This document shows positions 8,800-20,421 of a stretch of 64,000 nucleotides of DNA, piece by piece. The position numbers and the translations under genes are program-made. This DNA is from an uncultured delta proteobacterium (GTDB lineage: Bacteria; Desulfobacterota; Binatia; UBA9968). The notes below the pieces were generated by a model, which did no database searches, had not been told where the DNA came from, and saw only the letters and a program-made list of their open reading frames with translations. The stretch covers positions 416,001 through 480,000 of the forward strand of contig CAVSHR010000012.1 of assembly GCA_963727625.1 (NCBI GenBank), given 5' to 3'. Each line of letters begins with the position of its first letter. Within the stretch, counting starts at the first letter, position 1.

Positions 8800-9588
8800 C
8801 TAACGCCGCTCGTTGAAAAAGCCGGCTGACGTAAGTTCATCGAACAGAGTGTTGATATTGCCCTCGCAAAATTCTTGATAGGTCACTAAGAACCCGTTTC
8901 GCAATTTCTCCCCTTCTTCGGTTGTCTTCTTGCCCGTCGCATGTCTGAGGATTTCATAAACTAACCAATCGGCGGCCTGCAAAGGTGGAAACGCGTGGCT
9001 TGATTGGGTTACAACTGTCCCGATTTTCTCTCGGTCCTCAAAACTGACGTTTTCTTTCATTAGCAGCCTGATTCTGTCGGCCTTCCCAATTATCTTGTCT
9101 CTTTTATCCAAGACAAAAGAAACCTGCATTCCGTCTGGTACCTTCCTTGTTGCTTCGATCAAAAGATATTGCCAGCAGGCGTGATAGTGCGGTAGAAATT
9201 TCGACTTTGGATGCTGCCCGTAGTCCTCGATATTCAACGATACGCCAATCCCGGTCGGTGTCGTCGTTTCAAGCACAGTTAACAACTCGCCCTGTAGCTC
9301 CGTAATACGCTCGCTGGGCCAGCCCTTGAACTCCTTTTCACACTGGGTGCAATCATGCGCGTGATATTCAGAAAGACCGTAGCGGTTGGTTATTTCTCGC
9401 CAGCTTTCATCAAAAGTTTGCCAGGCATCTAGCGGCGCTATCCAACCACCAAGCACAAAAAGTATATTACCCTTTCCGTCAGCGCTTTCATCTATGTAGG
9501 CCGCAAGTGGCATAAGCAATCTCAACCGATCCGTGAATCTGTGTAGAGTGCCCCTAGTTTCGGTAAGGATATCACATTCGGTCGACAT
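8800..9588 (-). CDS. DUF3800-family protein (RNase H-like fold)
   Basis: AYIDES near the N-terminus, EYHA motif and C-terminal PLQAADWLVYE; true start probably about 25 codons in (MPLAAYIDES). Confidence 0.75.
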   Translation of the reverse strand: MSTECDILTETRGTLHRFTDRLRLLMPLAAYIDESADGKGNILFVLGGWIAPLDAWQTFDESWREITNRYGLSEYHAHDCTQCEKEFKGWPSERITELQGELLTVLETTTPTGIGVSLNIEDYGQHPKSKFLPHYHACWQYLLIEATRKVPDGMQVSFVLDKRDKIIGKADRIRLLMKENVSFEDREKIGTVVTQSSHAFPPLQAADWLVYEILRHATGKKTTEEGEKLRNGFLVTYQEFCEGNINTLFDELTSAGFFNERR

Positions 9589-9724: not shown

Positions 9725-9842
9725 GGTTTTGTGCCAACTTCGGGTGACAAACGGTAGCAGCCAGTGATTACTGCACGCGGGGTGAAGCGTGATTTCTTGA
9801 CGCCTTAGCATTCGCTGTCATCCGGTGATTCGTCGTTTGGGG

Positions 9843-9879
9843 CTTTCGGACGGGGGTTCGATTCCCCCCGCCTCCACCA
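9843..9879 (+). ncRNA. ssrA: tmRNA 3'-end fragment (attachment-site duplicate), not a full gene
   Basis: CTTTCGGACGGGGGTTCGATTCCCCCCGCCTCCACCA has the T-arm, acceptor 3' strand and CCA, with the TTTCGGAC lead-in typical of tmRNA; no matching 5' portion nearby; smpB is 10 kb away. Confidence 0.8.
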
Positions 9880-9890
9880 ATATCCCTTCC

Positions 9891-11019
9891 AGATGGTGGC
9901 GCTGGAAGTATCGCTTCGCCGGCAAGGAGAAGCGGCTTTCACTCGGGGTCTATCCCGATGTGAAATTGAAAGCGGCACGGGACAAGCGCGATGCGTCCCG
10001 GCAGCAGCTTGCGGCGGGCATCGATCCTGGGGAAGCGCGCAAGGCGGAAAAGCAAGCGCAGGCAGGCGCGGAGAGCTTTGAAGCTATCGCACGCGAATGG
10101 CATGGCAAGTTTTCGCAGGGCTGGGAGACGAGCCACGGCGACCGTATCTTGCGGCGGCTTGAAAGGGATGTATTCCCGTGGATCGGCAAGCGGGCCATTG
10201 TCGAGATCAAAGCGGCCGAGCTATTGGCCATGCTGCGCAGGATCGAGAGCCGGGGTGCGCTGGAAACCACCCACCGCGCCAAGCAGAACTGCTGGCAGGT
10301 TTTCCGCTATGCCGTGGCGACCGGCAGGGCCGAGCGCGATCCGACGGCCGATCTACGCGGCGCGTTGCCCTTACCGCAAGAAAAGCACCATGCCTCGATC
10401 ATCGAACCAAAGCGTGTCGGCGCACTACTGCGTGCGATCGATGGCTATGAAGGATTTTTTGCCACGAAGTGCGCACTACGGCTCGCACCGTTGGTGTTCG
10501 TGCGGCCTGGAGAATTGCGCAGGGGGCAGTGGCCGGAGATCGATCTGGAAAAGGGCGAGTGGCGCATCCCTGCCGAGCGCATGAAGATGCGCGAGCAACA
10601 CATCGTCCCGCTGTCCCGTCAAGCCGTCGAAATCTTGCGTGAGCTGGAACCCGCTGACGAACCGCTCAATCCCCTCCAGGCCCAATGTGCCGTGCTACGT
10701 CTTCCCAAGCGCGCGCACGCGGGAGCGGCCCATGAGCGAAAACGCTGTCCTCGCAGCGCTGCGGCGCATGGGTTACAGCAAAGAAGAGATGACCGGCCAC
10801 GGCTTCCGGAGCATGGCGTCCACACTGCTTCACGAGCAAGGCTGGAACCATCAAGCCATCGAGCGCCAGCTAGCCCATGCCGAGCGAAATGCCGTGAGCG
10901 CGGCTTACAATTTCGCCGAGCATCTGCCGGAGCGGCGCAAGATGATGCAAGCTTGGGCGGATTATTTGGACAGTCTGAAAGCCGGCGCGGAGGTGATTCC
11001 GCTGTTCAAGAAGGCGTAG
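9891..11019 (+). pseudogene. P4-family (CP4-57 IntA-like) integrase, 5'-truncated and frameshifted
   Basis: Begins mid-domain at RWWRWKYRFAGKEKRLSLGVYP only 11 nt after the CCA; FVRPGELR; +1 shift at ~10650 (aacccgctg) into GHGFRSMAST...LAH...AAYN...MMQAWADYLD. Confidence 0.9.
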
Positions 11020-11097
11020 GCACCCTCGACCTCTTGAATGCCATTCAAATAACAAGCGTCGCTAAATTCTGAAGCGACCGTCAAAGCCCAACAAAAC

Positions 11098-11139
11098 CAA
11101 GCCCCGAGCGCTACCGTAACCGGTAGTTCTTGGGGCTTG
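11098..11139. terminator. Long hairpin between the convergent integrase and toxin-partner genes
   Basis: CAAGCCCCGAG-CG-CTACCG-TAAC-CGGTAG-TT-CTTGGGGCTTG. Confidence 0.5.
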
Positions 11140-11212
11140 TCGTTTCAGATATACGGACAAAAGGCGGACAATGCCTTGAAGTGAAGATAGGCTTCAGGTG
11201 TCGCGATTCAAA

Positions 11213-11422
11213 TTATTCGACATCAACGTTTGGGAGGCGGACGTCTTTGTTTATTTCTCGCCTCTTGTCTTCAGGGATAGCAAACCAGAGTTTATCCATC
11301 CTGGCTCGAAGTTCCTCACCTTCTTCAGATTCATCTTGACTGCGTTGAATGAGGTCCTTTAGCGTTGCTAACAGAGCCATATATTCCTGATAAGCACTCT
11401 GGCGCCTCGTTAAAAATTGCAT
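11213..11422 (-). CDS. Small helical protein; putative immunity/antitoxin of the upstream toxin
   Basis: 69 aa, GGGAGG RBS, starts 10 nt after the toxin stop; acidic central helix (DESEEGEELRARMDKLW). Confidence 0.65.
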   Translation of the reverse strand: MQFLTRRQSAYQEYMALLATLKDLIQRSQDESEEGEELRARMDKLWFAIPEDKRREINKDVRLPNVDVE

Positions 11423-11432
11423 AAGACCTCCC

Positions 11433-11990
11433 TCAATGGTTAAGACAAACCCAATCCGGCGCTGTAGCTACTAACGCGTTCGCGAAAACCAATATTTTCA
11501 TAGTTGAGGCCGGTTCGATTACTCCATGACTAATACGATTAGCCGTGTCTCCCAAATCAAAATGTAACCTCAGCCTCGTTGCATCTTCGACTCTCTTCCT
11601 ATCAAGAAAGAACCAACAGTCAACATCTGACCCGGTTCCGCCATTTCTCTTAGGGATCCGGCTGTTCGGCAAGAGAGCAACATGCATTACCGGAAGAATA
11701 GACATCCCGCCGCCGTCCTGTCCCTCGTCGCCTGGTTTTATTTCGCTTCCATCTGGCGGATTTGGCGGTATCACTTCTCGCGATGTAACCCCGAGAAATC
11801 TTGAATTTCGCGCCCACATGGTCGGCGATACGAGCGGACTCGCGTTAGGAACGACTTGGCCAACCGCTGATAGAGCAACGGTTGCGAAATTTGTCGCTTG
11901 GCCATTAATGCTTGGCGTCATCAATCGATAAACCCTGGCTGGATTGTAATCTGCTCTATCGAGGAGCCCCGAATTGATAACAGTCTGCAC
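11433..11990 (-). CDS. Tse2-like ADP-ribosyltransferase-fold toxin
   Basis: Motif order VYRLM...LGV...GGGMS...P.R.GGTG...W...HGVIEPA..M...F..AL.AT...W matches my recollection of the Tse2 ADPRT family (R-S-H residues); start codon uncertain. Confidence 0.65.
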   Translation of the reverse strand: MQTVINSGLLDRADYNPARVYRLMTPSINGQATNFATVALSAVGQVVPNASPLVSPTMWARNSRFLGVTSREVIPPNPPDGSEIKPGDEGQDGGGMSILPVMHVALLPNSRIPKRNGGTGSDVDCWFFLDRKRVEDATRLRLHFDLGDTANRISHGVIEPASTMKILVFANALVATAPDWVCLNH

Positions 11991-12374
11991 GAAAGATGAT
12001 CAAATACTTTCCTAGGGAATGGCCTTCTCATACTGTAGATTAGACGAATCTGTCAATAATTTAGTTTTACGCAACAACTATGCCGTCCCATGAGCCCGTG
12101 CCGATGTGTAAAATGTCTGCAAAATCGGCGTTTGAACGAGACACGGAATACGCACAACTGCCAATTCGGATACAATCTGTCAGGAAAGTGCTCTTTTTGT
12201 AGGACCAACCGCCGAGCGGTTTAAGCAAGCGTCACCTACAACAAAGTAACGATCAGTAAAAGTGAGACGTTGTTTGGTCTTTTCCCAGACGCGCCTTCAA
12301 AGACCAACAAACTAAGGCCAGAACCCTGCAGTAAGGTCCGGTCCGCTTCTTCGTCAGACCCGTATTAAGGTCGC

Positions 12375-13622
12375 TTAAGTGCCCGCTTTGGTACGCTGCT
12401 CAATTGCACGATCGATGAGCGCTTGAACGGTTGCAGAGGCGATGACAAATTCAAACGAGCGCATAAACGCCATAGGTCCTAACTCCACAAACAGCTTAGC
12501 GAATACTTCATCTGCAAAGCTACTCGATACAATAGGCACTCCATCGAAGTCGATAAGGATTCGATTGTTTTTCAGCATCCCAAGCAAGTTAGTCAGCTTA
12601 ATACGAACAGGTGTTCCTGCCGCGCGGCTTCCCGTCGACTCAGATTCATCGCGCATGCGGAAACAACCTCCACCGTCGTCCCCCTCGTACCTTAATTCAA
12701 CATGGTCGATGGGATGATGGATCTCTCCGGCGAATTTCAACGCTTCACCAAGAACCCCTGGGCGTGAGCAGTCAACACAAGAGACTATAAGAGCACCGTG
12801 ATAGGGAATGGCTTCATTGCGAACAACAAGTCCCCTTTTCGGATCGTAGGCCAGGTGCGCGTTACCAGAGTTAACCTGGAAATACCCGCCACTTACCCGA
12901 CAGATTTCAAAACTGCCGTACAAACCGTTTCCTTGACCAATTGATTTGTCGCGCGTAACACCTTCACGTACGGCGCGTTCGAGAGCGTGAGCGTCAGAGG
13001 TTATATCTGTTCGCGTCTCGCGGAGGGTACGCGGAATCCCTATTCCTGCATCACAAACAACAAATTCCCCCCGTCTGCGGGACTTTTGAAAGGTAGCCAC
13101 CTGCACGATGCCCCCGTGCTTGGCCGTCGAATGAGTGAGCACATTGTCAGTGATCTCGTTAAGTGACCATTCAATCGCTGCAAAGTCTGCGCGGCTAACC
13201 CCATCAAGCGCCCCGAGGATCACGTCAATGATTGAGGAAACCGCCCCTGCTTGCTCCGCTGGCGCGGCAAATGTCGTGGCAGGGACGTGCGTGTATCCCT
13301 GAAATGTCGAGCGTCTGTAAGATTCGGGGTTAATGAGATAAGCCCAATTAGCATTTCTGAACAGGTTGGCCAATTTGCCAGCAACTGGAAGTACAAGATG
13401 GACGGCAATACCCCGATCGCGTGCCTCGATTACCTGTGAACAGATGGCAAGCATTGGTCCGGGAAACGCTGCAATACACTGCGAAAAGTCGACTATGAGG
13501 TCTTCGTAACCGAGTTTTTCGATCGCGGTATGCAATGTTGCCAGAAATCGATGAAAGTGGGCGATGCCAAATTCACCGTTTATAATAATGCGATTATCTA
13601 GACGTGAAATGACTTCCATCAT
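12375..13622 (-). CDS. Fused STAS-like / HATPase(GHKL) kinase / DUF4325 STAS-like protein
   Basis: N-box EITDNVLTHS, G1 CDAGIGI, G2 GQGNGLY; C-terminal ILIDFDGVPIVSSSFADEVF; N-terminal LIVDFSQC STAS-like strand. Confidence 0.8.
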   Translation of the reverse strand: MMEVISRLDNRIIINGEFGIAHFHRFLATLHTAIEKLGYEDLIVDFSQCIAAFPGPMLAICSQVIEARDRGIAVHLVLPVAGKLANLFRNANWAYLINPESYRRSTFQGYTHVPATTFAAPAEQAGAVSSIIDVILGALDGVSRADFAAIEWSLNEITDNVLTHSTAKHGGIVQVATFQKSRRRGEFVVCDAGIGIPRTLRETRTDITSDAHALERAVREGVTRDKSIGQGNGLYGSFEICRVSGGYFQVNSGNAHLAYDPKRGLVVRNEAIPYHGALIVSCVDCSRPGVLGEALKFAGEIHHPIDHVELRYEGDDGGGCFRMRDESESTGSRAAGTPVRIKLTNLLGMLKNNRILIDFDGVPIVSSSFADEVFAKLFVELGPMAFMRSFEFVIASATVQALIDRAIEQRTKAGT

Positions 13623-13865
13623 CCACCCGGCGGCCAGAATCGATTGCCCGCTGTTCGCGACAAAAACCGGTAGACCAATTTTCTCACAGGGACATACGAA
13701 CCTCTAGCAAATTCGCTCCAATATTGTTCAGACACCTGTCAATGACGTACGAGCCGGTGATCAAGTCAGCCCACTTGATTGGTAACCAAGCGGTCCACAG
13801 TAACTTTTTATCTCACAAGGGCTTTTTCTAGCCTGTCCGTGAATTGTCCGCGTCCCTCCAACGTT

Positions 13866-14537
13866 TCACGCTGGCCGTATGCACTCTGGTGTGTCGTTCA
13901 TCGGTGAGTTAACCAGCGTCGAAACCTCCTGCGCTTCGATTAGCTCTGACGGAAACGGCTGGAGGATTGCCGCCAGAGCCTTTGCGGAATTGGTGGGGCA
14001 CCGGGGGTCCAGCCAATGTCGCGCCATATCTGCGTCATAGATCACCGGCATTCGGTTGTGAATGGGGCGTAGTAAGGCGTTCGGTTCCGTGGTGATTATC
14101 GTGAAGGTATGGAGCACATCGCCCAGCGCGACGTTTCGCCAGGAATCCCATAGGCCGGCGAAGGCGAATGGTTGTCGGTCCTTCGCGTGAATCCATACCG
14201 GAATTTTGCGTTTACCCTCCCGGCGCCACTCGTAAAAGCCATCGGCTGGAACGAGACAACGACGAGACCCTATCAAGCGTTTGAATGATGGCTTTTCAGT
14301 CAGCGTTTCGGCTCGCGCATTGATCATAGCGTTTCCTATGCTCGGATCTTGCGCCCATGACGGGACCAATCCCCATTTCATGAGCTTCGCTTCATTTCGG
14401 TCTTCATTGCGCAGGATTACCGGCACCTCTTGTGACGGCGCGATGTTGTAGCGCGGGCCGAAGGAAAGATCCCCCTGAAGATTCCACTGAAGCTTAATCT
14501 CACGGAAGCTAAATGTTGCTGTGAATCGGCCACACAT
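13866..14537 (-). CDS. SOS response-associated peptidase (SRAP/HMCES/YedK family)
   Basis: MCGRF N-terminus, RYNIAPSQ, INARAET, GFYEW, IHNRMPVI. Confidence 0.95.
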   Translation of the reverse strand: MCGRFTATFSFREIKLQWNLQGDLSFGPRYNIAPSQEVPVILRNEDRNEAKLMKWGLVPSWAQDPSIGNAMINARAETLTEKPSFKRLIGSRRCLVPADGFYEWRREGKRKIPVWIHAKDRQPFAFAGLWDSWRNVALGDVLHTFTIITTEPNALLRPIHNRMPVIYDADMARHWLDPRCPTNSAKALAAILQPFPSELIEAQEVSTLVNSPMNDTPECIRPA

Positions 14538-14687
14538 GAGAACGATTGAAAAACCTTCTGTCTAAAATCCGTTGTAAGGGGAAGCGTTCAAAGCCGCTCT
14601 CGCTTGAGAATTTTGCGGATGCATCATTTCTACTCTCGGCCCGTTAATAAATCGAAGTCAATCCTCGGGCAGGCGCCGATTAGATGC

Positions 14688-14713
14688 TACTCATAGTGTG
14701 TAGACTTAAAGGA
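14688..14713 (+). promoter_or_regulatory. Degenerate C-box operator of an RM controller protein
   Basis: TACTCATAGTG-TGTA-GACTTAAAGGA versus the PvuII-type consensus GACTnnnAGTC-TGTA-GACTnnnAGTC; 16 nt before ATG 14730. Confidence 0.65.
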
Positions 14714-19944: not shown

Positions 19945-20421
19945 CTAGTGCCGCGCCTTGAGCGAGCGTTCGACTTCACGCTGGGCGACTTTGCGGCGCA
20001 GGGTTTCCCGTTTGTCGTAGAGTTTCTTGCCGCGCGCCAGGCCTAATTCCACTTTGGCCTGGCCGTTTTTGAAGTAAATCTTGAGCGGAATCAGCGTGAG
20101 CCCGCGCTCTTTGGTCTTGCCGGTCAGGCGCTCGATCTCGCGCGCGTGGAGCAAGAGCTTGCGCGTACGCGTCGGCTCGTGGTTGAACTGGTTGGCGCCA
20201 GCATAGGGGCTGATATGGAAGTTGACCAAAAACGCTTCGCCTTTTTGAATGCGCGCGTAGCTGTCCACCAGATTGGCCTTGCCGTCGCGCAGCGACTTCA
20301 CTTCGCTGCCGACCAAAACCATGCCCGCTTCGTAGGTCTCGTCGATAAAATAGTTGTGCCGCGCCTGGCGGTTGACGCAAACCACTTGCTCGCCAGATGC
20401 CGCGGGCTTTTTACTTGCCAT
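19945..20421 (-). CDS. smpB: SsrA-binding protein
   Basis: NRQARHNYFI, EAGMVLVGSEVKSLR, RKLLLH, GKKLYDKRE. Confidence 0.98.
   Translation of the reverse strand: MASKKPAASGEQVVCVNRQARHNYFIDETYEAGMVLVGSEVKSLRDGKANLVDSYARIQKGEAFLVNFHISPYAGANQFNHEPTRTRKLLLHAREIERLTGKTKERGLTLIPLKIYFKNGQAKVELGLARGKKLYDKRETLRRKVAQREVERSLKARH

Follow-up and report, generated by a model that had tools for sequence, protein, structure and literature searches.

Anti-sigma-type kinases paired with STAS-domain substrates have recently been described as portable DNA-damage sensors for bacterial immunity (Chambers et al., EMBO J 2026; PMC13373217). As set out in the main text of that work, CapK, which has a helix-turn-helix (HTH)-STAS-GHKL organization, is switched on by single-stranded DNA (ssDNA) and phosphorylates S54 of CapS, a STAS-winged HTH (wHTH) protein, whereupon adjacent immune operons are de-repressed; VapK, of STAS-GHKL organization, acts on S48 of VapS and thereby frees the VapC toxin. 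The ssDNA is bound between the STAS and GHKL domains, where an aromatic residue (W68 in CapK, F54 in VapK) provides stacking. CapK/CapS is named there a 'controller of adjacent pathways' and vapKSC a toxin-antitoxin-like defence operon, the VapS-VapC structure being 9z7o. The same main text reports that 88 of 443 capKS loci lie just downstream of restriction-modification (R-M) genes and that an immune gene is found within 10 kb of 36% of vapKSC loci (PMC13373217). Here we analyse a 64,000-nt stretch of contig CAVSHR010000012.1 from an uncultured delta proteobacterium (hereafter the window, to which all unprefixed coordinates refer) and a 415-aa protein encoded in it at 12375-13622 on the minus strand. 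This protein combines an N-terminal STAS domain, a SpoIIAB-like GHKL kinase domain and a C-terminal STAS-like domain in a single chain, and is termed here the kinase-STAS (K-S) fusion; residue numbers are those of this protein. It represents a known kind of module, found here with both partners in one chain and without an effector. Literature searches yielded no description of a fused kinase-STAS form, on which the main text of PMC13373217, as distinct from its Datasets EV1-EV3, is silent.

The open reading frame (ORF) starts with ATG and is confirmed as a genuine gene, as the first-pass annotation of this DNA, made from the sequence alone, had observed. That annotation had also proposed a STAS-GHKL-STAS order within one chain, which both Pfam and fold comparison by VIA-align bear out. 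Pfam places DUF4325 at residues 350-399 (E 9.2e-10) and HATPase_c at residues 154-253 (E 3.4e-6), both over cut-off, while HATPase_c_2, the anti-sigma-kinase model, matches residues 119-205 with E 7e-5 and 23.3 bits, under its cut-off of 27.4. Neither an HTH or other DNA-binding domain nor a HisKA match was detected by Pfam in the K-S fusion, and the place of the DHp His domain, correctly noted as missing in the first reading, is taken by the N-terminal STAS domain. A two-component histidine kinase was considered and rejected on the lack of DHp/HisKA and on an NCBIfam histidine-kinase match that reached 16 bits where the cut-off is 342. The translation shows the N, G1 and G2 boxes and SSSFADE in the places where they had been read (Table 1), all of them near-invariant among 240 full-length relatives of 28-100% identity. 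In each of these relatives, as here, the kinase and substrate domains lie in one ORF. Residues E156, N160, H164, D191, G193, G231, G233, L234 and G236 are invariant (240/240), and W93 is present in 231 of the 240; judged by its motif, N160 would be the counterpart of CapK N218.

The kinase assignment was examined on an AlphaFold2 (AF2) model built from 115 sequences, with a predicted local distance difference test (pLDDT) score of 90.2 and a predicted template modelling (pTM) score of 0.88, which was compared with 48,161 PDB chains by VIA-align. Residues 109-288 match SpoIIAB best (1l0o_A, Z 13.9, root-mean-square deviation (rmsd) 2.7, 137 residues aligned), followed by UsfX (8ih8_C, Z 11.2), RsbW (6m36_A, Z 11.2) and the RsbW domain of Rv1364c (3ke6_B, Z 11.1), while histidine-kinase catalytic and ATP-binding (CA) domains (Z ~8) and topoisomerase/MutL ATPases (Z ~9 or less) rank lower. 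The model supports an anti-sigma Ser-kinase type, as first proposed. Residues 1-102 match STAS proteins, namely 1sbo_A (Z 10.4), SpoIIAA 1tid_B (Z 10.3) and RsbS 6jhk_A (Z 10.2). A Foldseek search with the whole model gave weak multi-domain matches, to LvrC (9qih_B, E 5e-4) and to Hsp90 N-domains, and a single-sequence phmmer search of the 415-aa protein against the PDB gave chance-level matches only. These comparisons bear on the alternative in which the GHKL domain works as an ATPase or as a switch that binds nucleotides, and not as a protein kinase, with STAS-like domains that bind a ligand or protein and a serine run that is structural. STAS domains can bind nucleotides, the HATPase_c_2 score falls under the Pfam cut-off, and non-kinase GHKL ATPases (topoisomerase II, MutL, Hsp90) do occur lower in the structure-match lists; nevertheless, Ser kinases are the best structural matches by a Z of 13.9 against 9 or less for the ATPases, and the Ser run is retained in 237-238 of 240 relatives at the VapS acceptor position. 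We regard a non-kinase role as quite unlikely.

The C-terminal domain is STAS-like on the basis of sequence matches, comprising DUF4325, a weak match of PF01740 (STAS) to one relative (P0192, E 1.7e-4), and a match to VapS. The last of these, Escherichia VapS (9z7o_A, E 0.013), is the sole near-significant PDB match of the family profile and extends over residues 349-411. In this alignment the Ser of the VapS stretch ASPFF stands opposite S367, so that the SSS run overlies the acceptor Ser stretch of VapS, in agreement with the earlier proposal that it occupies the place of the phospho-Ser in SpoIIAA/RsbV-type proteins. S366 is found in 219, S367 in 237 and S368 in 238 of the 240 relatives, as are D371 and E372 in 238 each, and the SSSFADE motif opens a helix (residues 367-381) in the DSSP assignment of the model. 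At the canonical phospho-site of the N-terminal STAS domain, the sequence and the DSSP helix 54-69 place F53-P54-G55, with no Ser or Thr; the C-terminal domain alone can therefore be a canonical substrate. The final STAS helix (397-414) brings the protein to its end at residue 415, with no output element such as a wHTH or inhibitory helix after the STAS fold.

The K-S fusion is colinear with pairs of separately encoded kinase and STAS-like proteins. In G025 (L083), a 285-aa kinase protein aligns to residues 21-288 with an hhalign probability of 97%, and the adjoining 121-aa DUF4325 protein aligns to residues 332-413 with a probability of 94%. Further split pairs occur in G101 and on the Alicyclobacillus plasmid pAACI02 (L128, 79-1748), where a 'sigma factor-like helix-turn-helix' gene is followed by the kinase (540-1433) and STAS-like (1440-1748) genes, with insertion sequence (IS) elements adjoining. 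Separate kinase and DUF4325 genes beside toxins and immune loci, which the first-pass annotation had brought up, correspond to CapK/CapS and VapK/VapS/VapC as published, with ssDNA as the trigger (PMC13373217).

Among the described systems, VapK resembles residues 1-288 of the K-S fusion in comprising STAS and GHKL domains without an HTH, and the C-terminal domain, where S367/S368 stand at the start of helix 367-381, resembles VapS, a STAS protein of small size in which one Ser/Thr is absolutely conserved. CapK likewise is a SpoIIAB-like kinase with an N-terminal STAS domain, and its STAS substrate CapS is phosphorylated at a conserved Ser where helix 2 begins. The differences lie in the output: vapKSC consists of separate genes with a VapC/PIN toxin, whereas the K-S fusion is one polypeptide with no VapC/PIN gene and no conserved partner, and VapS has an inhibitory C-terminal tail where the K-S fusion has nothing beyond the STAS fold. 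CapK carries an additional N-terminal HTH and CapS a wHTH that represses the downstream operon, whereas the K-S fusion has no DNA-binding domain, is fused, and has no fixed downstream operon (main text of PMC13373217). The SpoIIAB-SpoIIAA and RsbW-RsbV pairs share the kinase fold, the STAS fold and the Ser at the N-terminus of helix 2; unlike them, the K-S fusion has a kinase flanked by two STAS-type domains, of which the N-terminal one lacks an acceptor Ser, and has no linked sigma factor or PP2C phosphatase. Rv1364c of Mycobacterium tuberculosis is a single-chain PAS-PP2C-RsbW-RsbV regulator, which also joins an anti-sigma-type kinase to its STAS substrate, but contains additional PAS and phosphatase domains, to which nothing in the K-S fusion corresponds, and has no N-terminal STAS domain before the kinase.

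We consider it somewhat likely that the K-S fusion is a single-chain CapK/VapK-like sensor kinase with a tethered CapS/VapS-like substrate. The N-terminal STAS domain and the SpoIIAB-like GHKL domain would form the sensor kinase and the C-terminal DUF4325/STAS-like domain the tethered substrate, in which the acceptor may be one near-invariant Ser of SSSFADE. The activated kinase would phosphorylate the tethered domain, in cis or between protomers, and thereby change the binding partners of the STAS face; if CapK is a guide, ssDNA arising from DNA damage or phage infection may be the signal. As the protein has neither a DNA-binding tail nor a toxin-binding tail, and its gene has no conserved neighbour, the output would be exerted in trans on an unlinked target or through the protein's own oligomeric state.

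The principal rival is a classical partner switch, in which the SpoIIAB-like domain would sequester an unlinked sigma factor or other regulator, with the tethered STAS domain as antagonist, as part of a general stress response. The nearest folds are indeed true anti-sigma factors, Rv1364c is a single-chain phosphatase-kinase-STAS precedent, housekeeping genes flank many of the family's loci, and the split pair on pAACI02 has a sigma-factor-like HTH gene just upstream. Against this, the absence of a sigma factor nearby, as noted in the first reading, holds across the annotated window ORFs (805-24711), which contain neither a sigma factor nor a PP2C phosphatase, and neither recurs among 288 neighbouring ORFs of family members; moreover, a patchy, horizontally spread distribution suits an accessory gene better than a core regulator. 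We rate this reading as unlikely.

The family to which the K-S fusion belongs is extensive. A word-indexed search found at least 1563 homologues of similar length among 8000 candidates scored, the best 120 of which are nearly all full length (410-440 aa) and 51-89% identical. A profile search against 1.84 billion cluster representatives returned 4830 matches at E<=1e-3, and tightening the limit to E<=1e-30 left 612 clusters, more than the published sets of 443 capKS and 289 vapKSC loci reported in the main text of PMC13373217. Members are nearly always ~415 aa long and are labelled at source as 'STAS-like domain-containing protein' or 'anti-anti-sigma / anti-sigma regulatory factor (Ser/Thr kinase)'. 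Few members are longer: in P0121 (804 aa) and P0251 (855 aa) the K-S module is followed by a cold-shock domain, a NusB-like region and a NUDIX hydrolase domain, and an IF2_N domain is present in P0010 and P0064, at the N-terminal end in one and the C-terminal end in the other; a dedicated search for longer fused forms, which is weak evidence, yielded P0121 only. Among 24 congeners the full-length form occurs in one (57% identical), and it occurs in none of 300 other genomes of the phylum, nine of which hold split-type partial matches. The distribution of the family is patchy, and we read the K-S gene as a horizontally spread, stand-alone accessory gene.

One PADLOC profile for DrmA (PDLC02567) also matches the K-S fusion, positions 137-393 of its 1750 aligning to residues 147-411, i.e. 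the GHKL and DUF4325 domains (E 2.3e-31). Identity with DISARM DrmA, whose helicase/DUF1998-associated core spans ~1100 aa, was rejected, given that profile positions 137-393 alone match. No DrmA carrying a K-S module was found in 301 genomes of the phylum, where long DrmA matches start from profile position 390. The stretch of the profile homologous to the K-S fusion is absent from these long DrmA matches, so that K-S proteins standing alone may be mislabelled by PADLOC as fragments of DrmA.

To survey the genomic context of the family, 80 genome loci were examined with a simple ORF caller (212 of 318 pattern matches being confirmed), and the focal ORF was recovered in 78; L040 and L061 were left out, having no ORF that matched the query. 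There is no conserved neighbour: the largest BLASTP cluster within ±4 ORFs covers 3 of 79 loci, and none includes the window's neighbours. Among 47 tightly coupled same-strand ORFs (-60 to +120 bp), the only groups that recur in phmmer comparisons are explained by synteny, and the most that any Pfam domain recurs among the 288 ORFs at ±2 positions is in 3 of 78 loci. Domains of R-M, toxin-antitoxin, nuclease, recombinase or transposase proteins are found at about one third of loci, the remainder having housekeeping or unknown flanks.

A defence scan with PADLOC, covering the 389 ORFs that lie up to four positions away on either side and encode 110 aa or more, gave a convincing defence-family match at 18 of 78 loci, a raw count taken without a background rate (Table 1). 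Generic matches were discounted at L007, L009, L027, L045, L051, L058, L063, L065, L069, L073, L074 and L080. The count can be set beside the vapKSC loci, 36% of which lie within 10 kb of an immune gene, and the positions directly downstream of R-M genes (L004, L006, L012) or beside a cyclic-oligonucleotide-based anti-phage signalling system (CBASS; L016, L047) resemble the settings of CapK/CapS described in the main text of PMC13373217. At L002 (8319-9563) and L003 (2288-3532), the fusion is followed on its own strand, after 74 bp, by the gene for a PDC-S54 candidate defence protein (414 aa, E 6.5e-140), with a DUF433 gene upstream of the fusion. At L016 (4335-8239), the fusion lies downstream of a CBASS phospholipase effector, a cyclase and a 187-aa unknown protein, all on the same strand, and at L047 (6920-11260) it lies beside a CapP/HTH-controlled cyclase-E2 operon of CBASS.

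Several observations weigh against a sensor kinase with a tethered substrate acting in immunity. With no output domain and no partner, the mechanism is incomplete. No defence gene lies within ±4 ORFs at 60 of 78 loci, and many flanks are housekeeping genes. Homology to a named member of the described systems is limited to the weak VapS match (9z7o_A, E 0.013). For a defence gene, ~50% identity between phyla is unusually high, and the family is rare on plasmids and phages, with 3 occurrences among 72,556 plasmid records and 1 among 50,697 phage records. Finally, position 53 is F or Y in 201 of 240 relatives, and the equation of F53 with the stacking aromatic VapK F54/CapK W68 is a conjecture, W93 being another candidate for that role.

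A further reading is a one-protein partner switch, in which a danger signal such as ssDNA would trigger autophosphorylation of the tethered STAS domain, and the SpoIIAB-like domain or the STAS face would then seize a conserved host component. Such a switch would explain the lack of a conserved neighbour, the ~50% cross-phylum identity and the reuse of the module before NUDIX and DrmA-type effectors. We hold it to be improbable; were it true, one portable gene would suffice both to detect DNA damage or phage attack and to exert an effect in trans, with no effector gene dedicated to it. For the sensor kinase with a tethered CapS/VapS-like substrate, the target of the K-S fusion, once found, would tell whether the module signals in trans to unlinked targets. 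The fusion also offers a compact kinase-substrate pair for the biochemistry of activation by ssDNA or another signal.

In the window, the K-S gene adjoins, on the same strand, a downstream pair of genes encoding a 185-aa and a 69-aa protein, and the first-pass annotation had proposed a three-gene system in which the fusion is the sensor gating an ADP-ribosyltransferase (ART) toxin. The arrangement of the genes and the precedent of vapKSC, in which a kinase and a STAS protein control a toxin (main text of PMC13373217), speak for such a system. So does the best fold match of the 185-aa protein, Tse2 (5ako_D, Z 5.9, rmsd 4.2, 121 residues aligned), although this comes from a poor AF2 model (pLDDT 56.5), on which other ART-fold chains follow at Z 2-3.7. 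No Pfam family and no usable ESM Atlas match was found for this protein, and its WD40 matches, in which no stretch is significant, were rejected as noise summed over repeats. An ART toxin is a plausible but weakly supported reading, and the pair is probably an uncharacterised ART-type toxin with an immunity or antitoxin protein.

Comparison across genomes separates the pair from the K-S fusion. Homologues of the 185-aa protein form only 11 clusters in a collection of 5.8 billion proteins; none occurs in the genomes of 40 relatives, and G012, which carries a member of the K-S family, has no relative of it. Neither the 185-aa nor the 69-aa protein has a relative within ±4 ORFs of the fusion at any of the 78 family loci, and the co-occurrence proposed for the fusion and the Tse2-like pair is therefore not borne out. 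Conversely, the fusion is present at none of 32 metagenome loci with 185-aa relatives, including four with 1.8-6 kb of upstream DNA (L098, L101, L102 and L103). At these loci the pair keeps its own company: of 11 close loci, 10 have the 69-aa protein immediately after it and L106 ends at a contig edge, and the other neighbours are transposase-related or unrelated genes. By blastn, nucleotide homology of the pair spans 11078-12086 only; its limit lies 96 bp upstream of the start of the toxin gene, which leaves 289 bp before the kinase gene is reached. The 385-bp gap between the toxin and kinase genes includes a TTGACA-containing stretch, though a consensus scan called no sigma-70-like promoter in 11000-14700 and terminator-like sites there are at chance level. 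Because co-occurrence is 0/78 and 0/32 and homology ends upstream of the toxin, the three-gene system is not supported, and we regard it as extremely unlikely; the position of the K-S fusion beside the Tse2-like pair is incidental. Adjacency to a toxin pair in one genome is no evidence of a system.

Table 1. Features of the K-S fusion and the adjacent pair in the window, and defence-family matches near K-S family members at other loci
Feature	Location	Strand	Basis
415-aa STAS / SpoIIAB-like GHKL kinase / DUF4325 STAS-like fusion (K-S fusion)	12375..13622	-	ORF, Pfam, homologues, model
N-terminal STAS domain, residues 1-102	13317..13622	-	VIA-align Z 10.2-10.4
GHKL kinase domain, residues 109-288	12759..13298	-	SpoIIAB 1l0o_A Z 13.9; box positions verified by translation
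N box EWSLNEITDNVLTHS, residues 151-165	13128-13172	-	translation
G1 box VCDAGIGIP, residues 189-197	13032-13058	-	translation
G2 box GQGNGLYGS, residues 229-237	12912-12938	-	translation
C-terminal STAS-like (DUF4325) domain, residues ~318-415 (boundary estimated from secondary structure)	12378..12671	-	Pfam, hhalign, VapS match
SSSFADE motif, residues 366-372, candidate phospho-acceptor serines	12507..12527	-	translation, conservation, VapS alignment, DSSP helix
Independent two-gene module with its own upstream stretch, not part of a K-S system	11078..12086	-	blastn homology limits
185-aa Tse2-like protein	11433-11990	-	fold match
69-aa partner	11213-11422	-	directly downstream in 10/11 close loci
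NsnA	L001, L010		PADLOC
PDC-S54, directly downstream	L002, L003		PADLOC
Type I R-M, hsdR directly upstream, same strand	L004, L006, L012		PADLOC
Defence-family match	L008, L011, L032, L034, L042, L064		PADLOC
CBASS	L016, L047		PADLOC
BrxA	L031		PADLOC
SoFic	L072		PADLOC
Upx	L078		PADLOC

The K-S gene has a GC content of 0.509 against 0.568 for the window, and lies in a low-GC islet of 0.49-0.52 over 11-14 kb, flanked on both sides by DNA of 0.61-0.64. Directly upstream of it, an SOS-response-associated peptidase (SRAP) is encoded at 13866-14537 on the minus strand (E 3.7e-75), and a DUF3800 gene lies at 8800-9588 on the minus strand, beyond an integrase gene; neither SRAP nor DUF3800 recurs beside K-S family members elsewhere. 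The integrase, of the tyrosine type (9825-11072), abuts a tmRNA-like fragment at 9778-9879 that scores 38 bits with the Rfam tmRNA model, under the 47-bit threshold, and also matches the permuted-tmRNA model. The integrase lacks ~30 N-terminal arm-binding residues and is frameshifted, with its catalytic end in another frame (10639-11019). No intact ssrA was found in the window by ARAGORN or at Rfam gathering thresholds, smpB is present at 19945-20421, and the segment 9778-11072 looks like the relic of an ssrA-targeting island.

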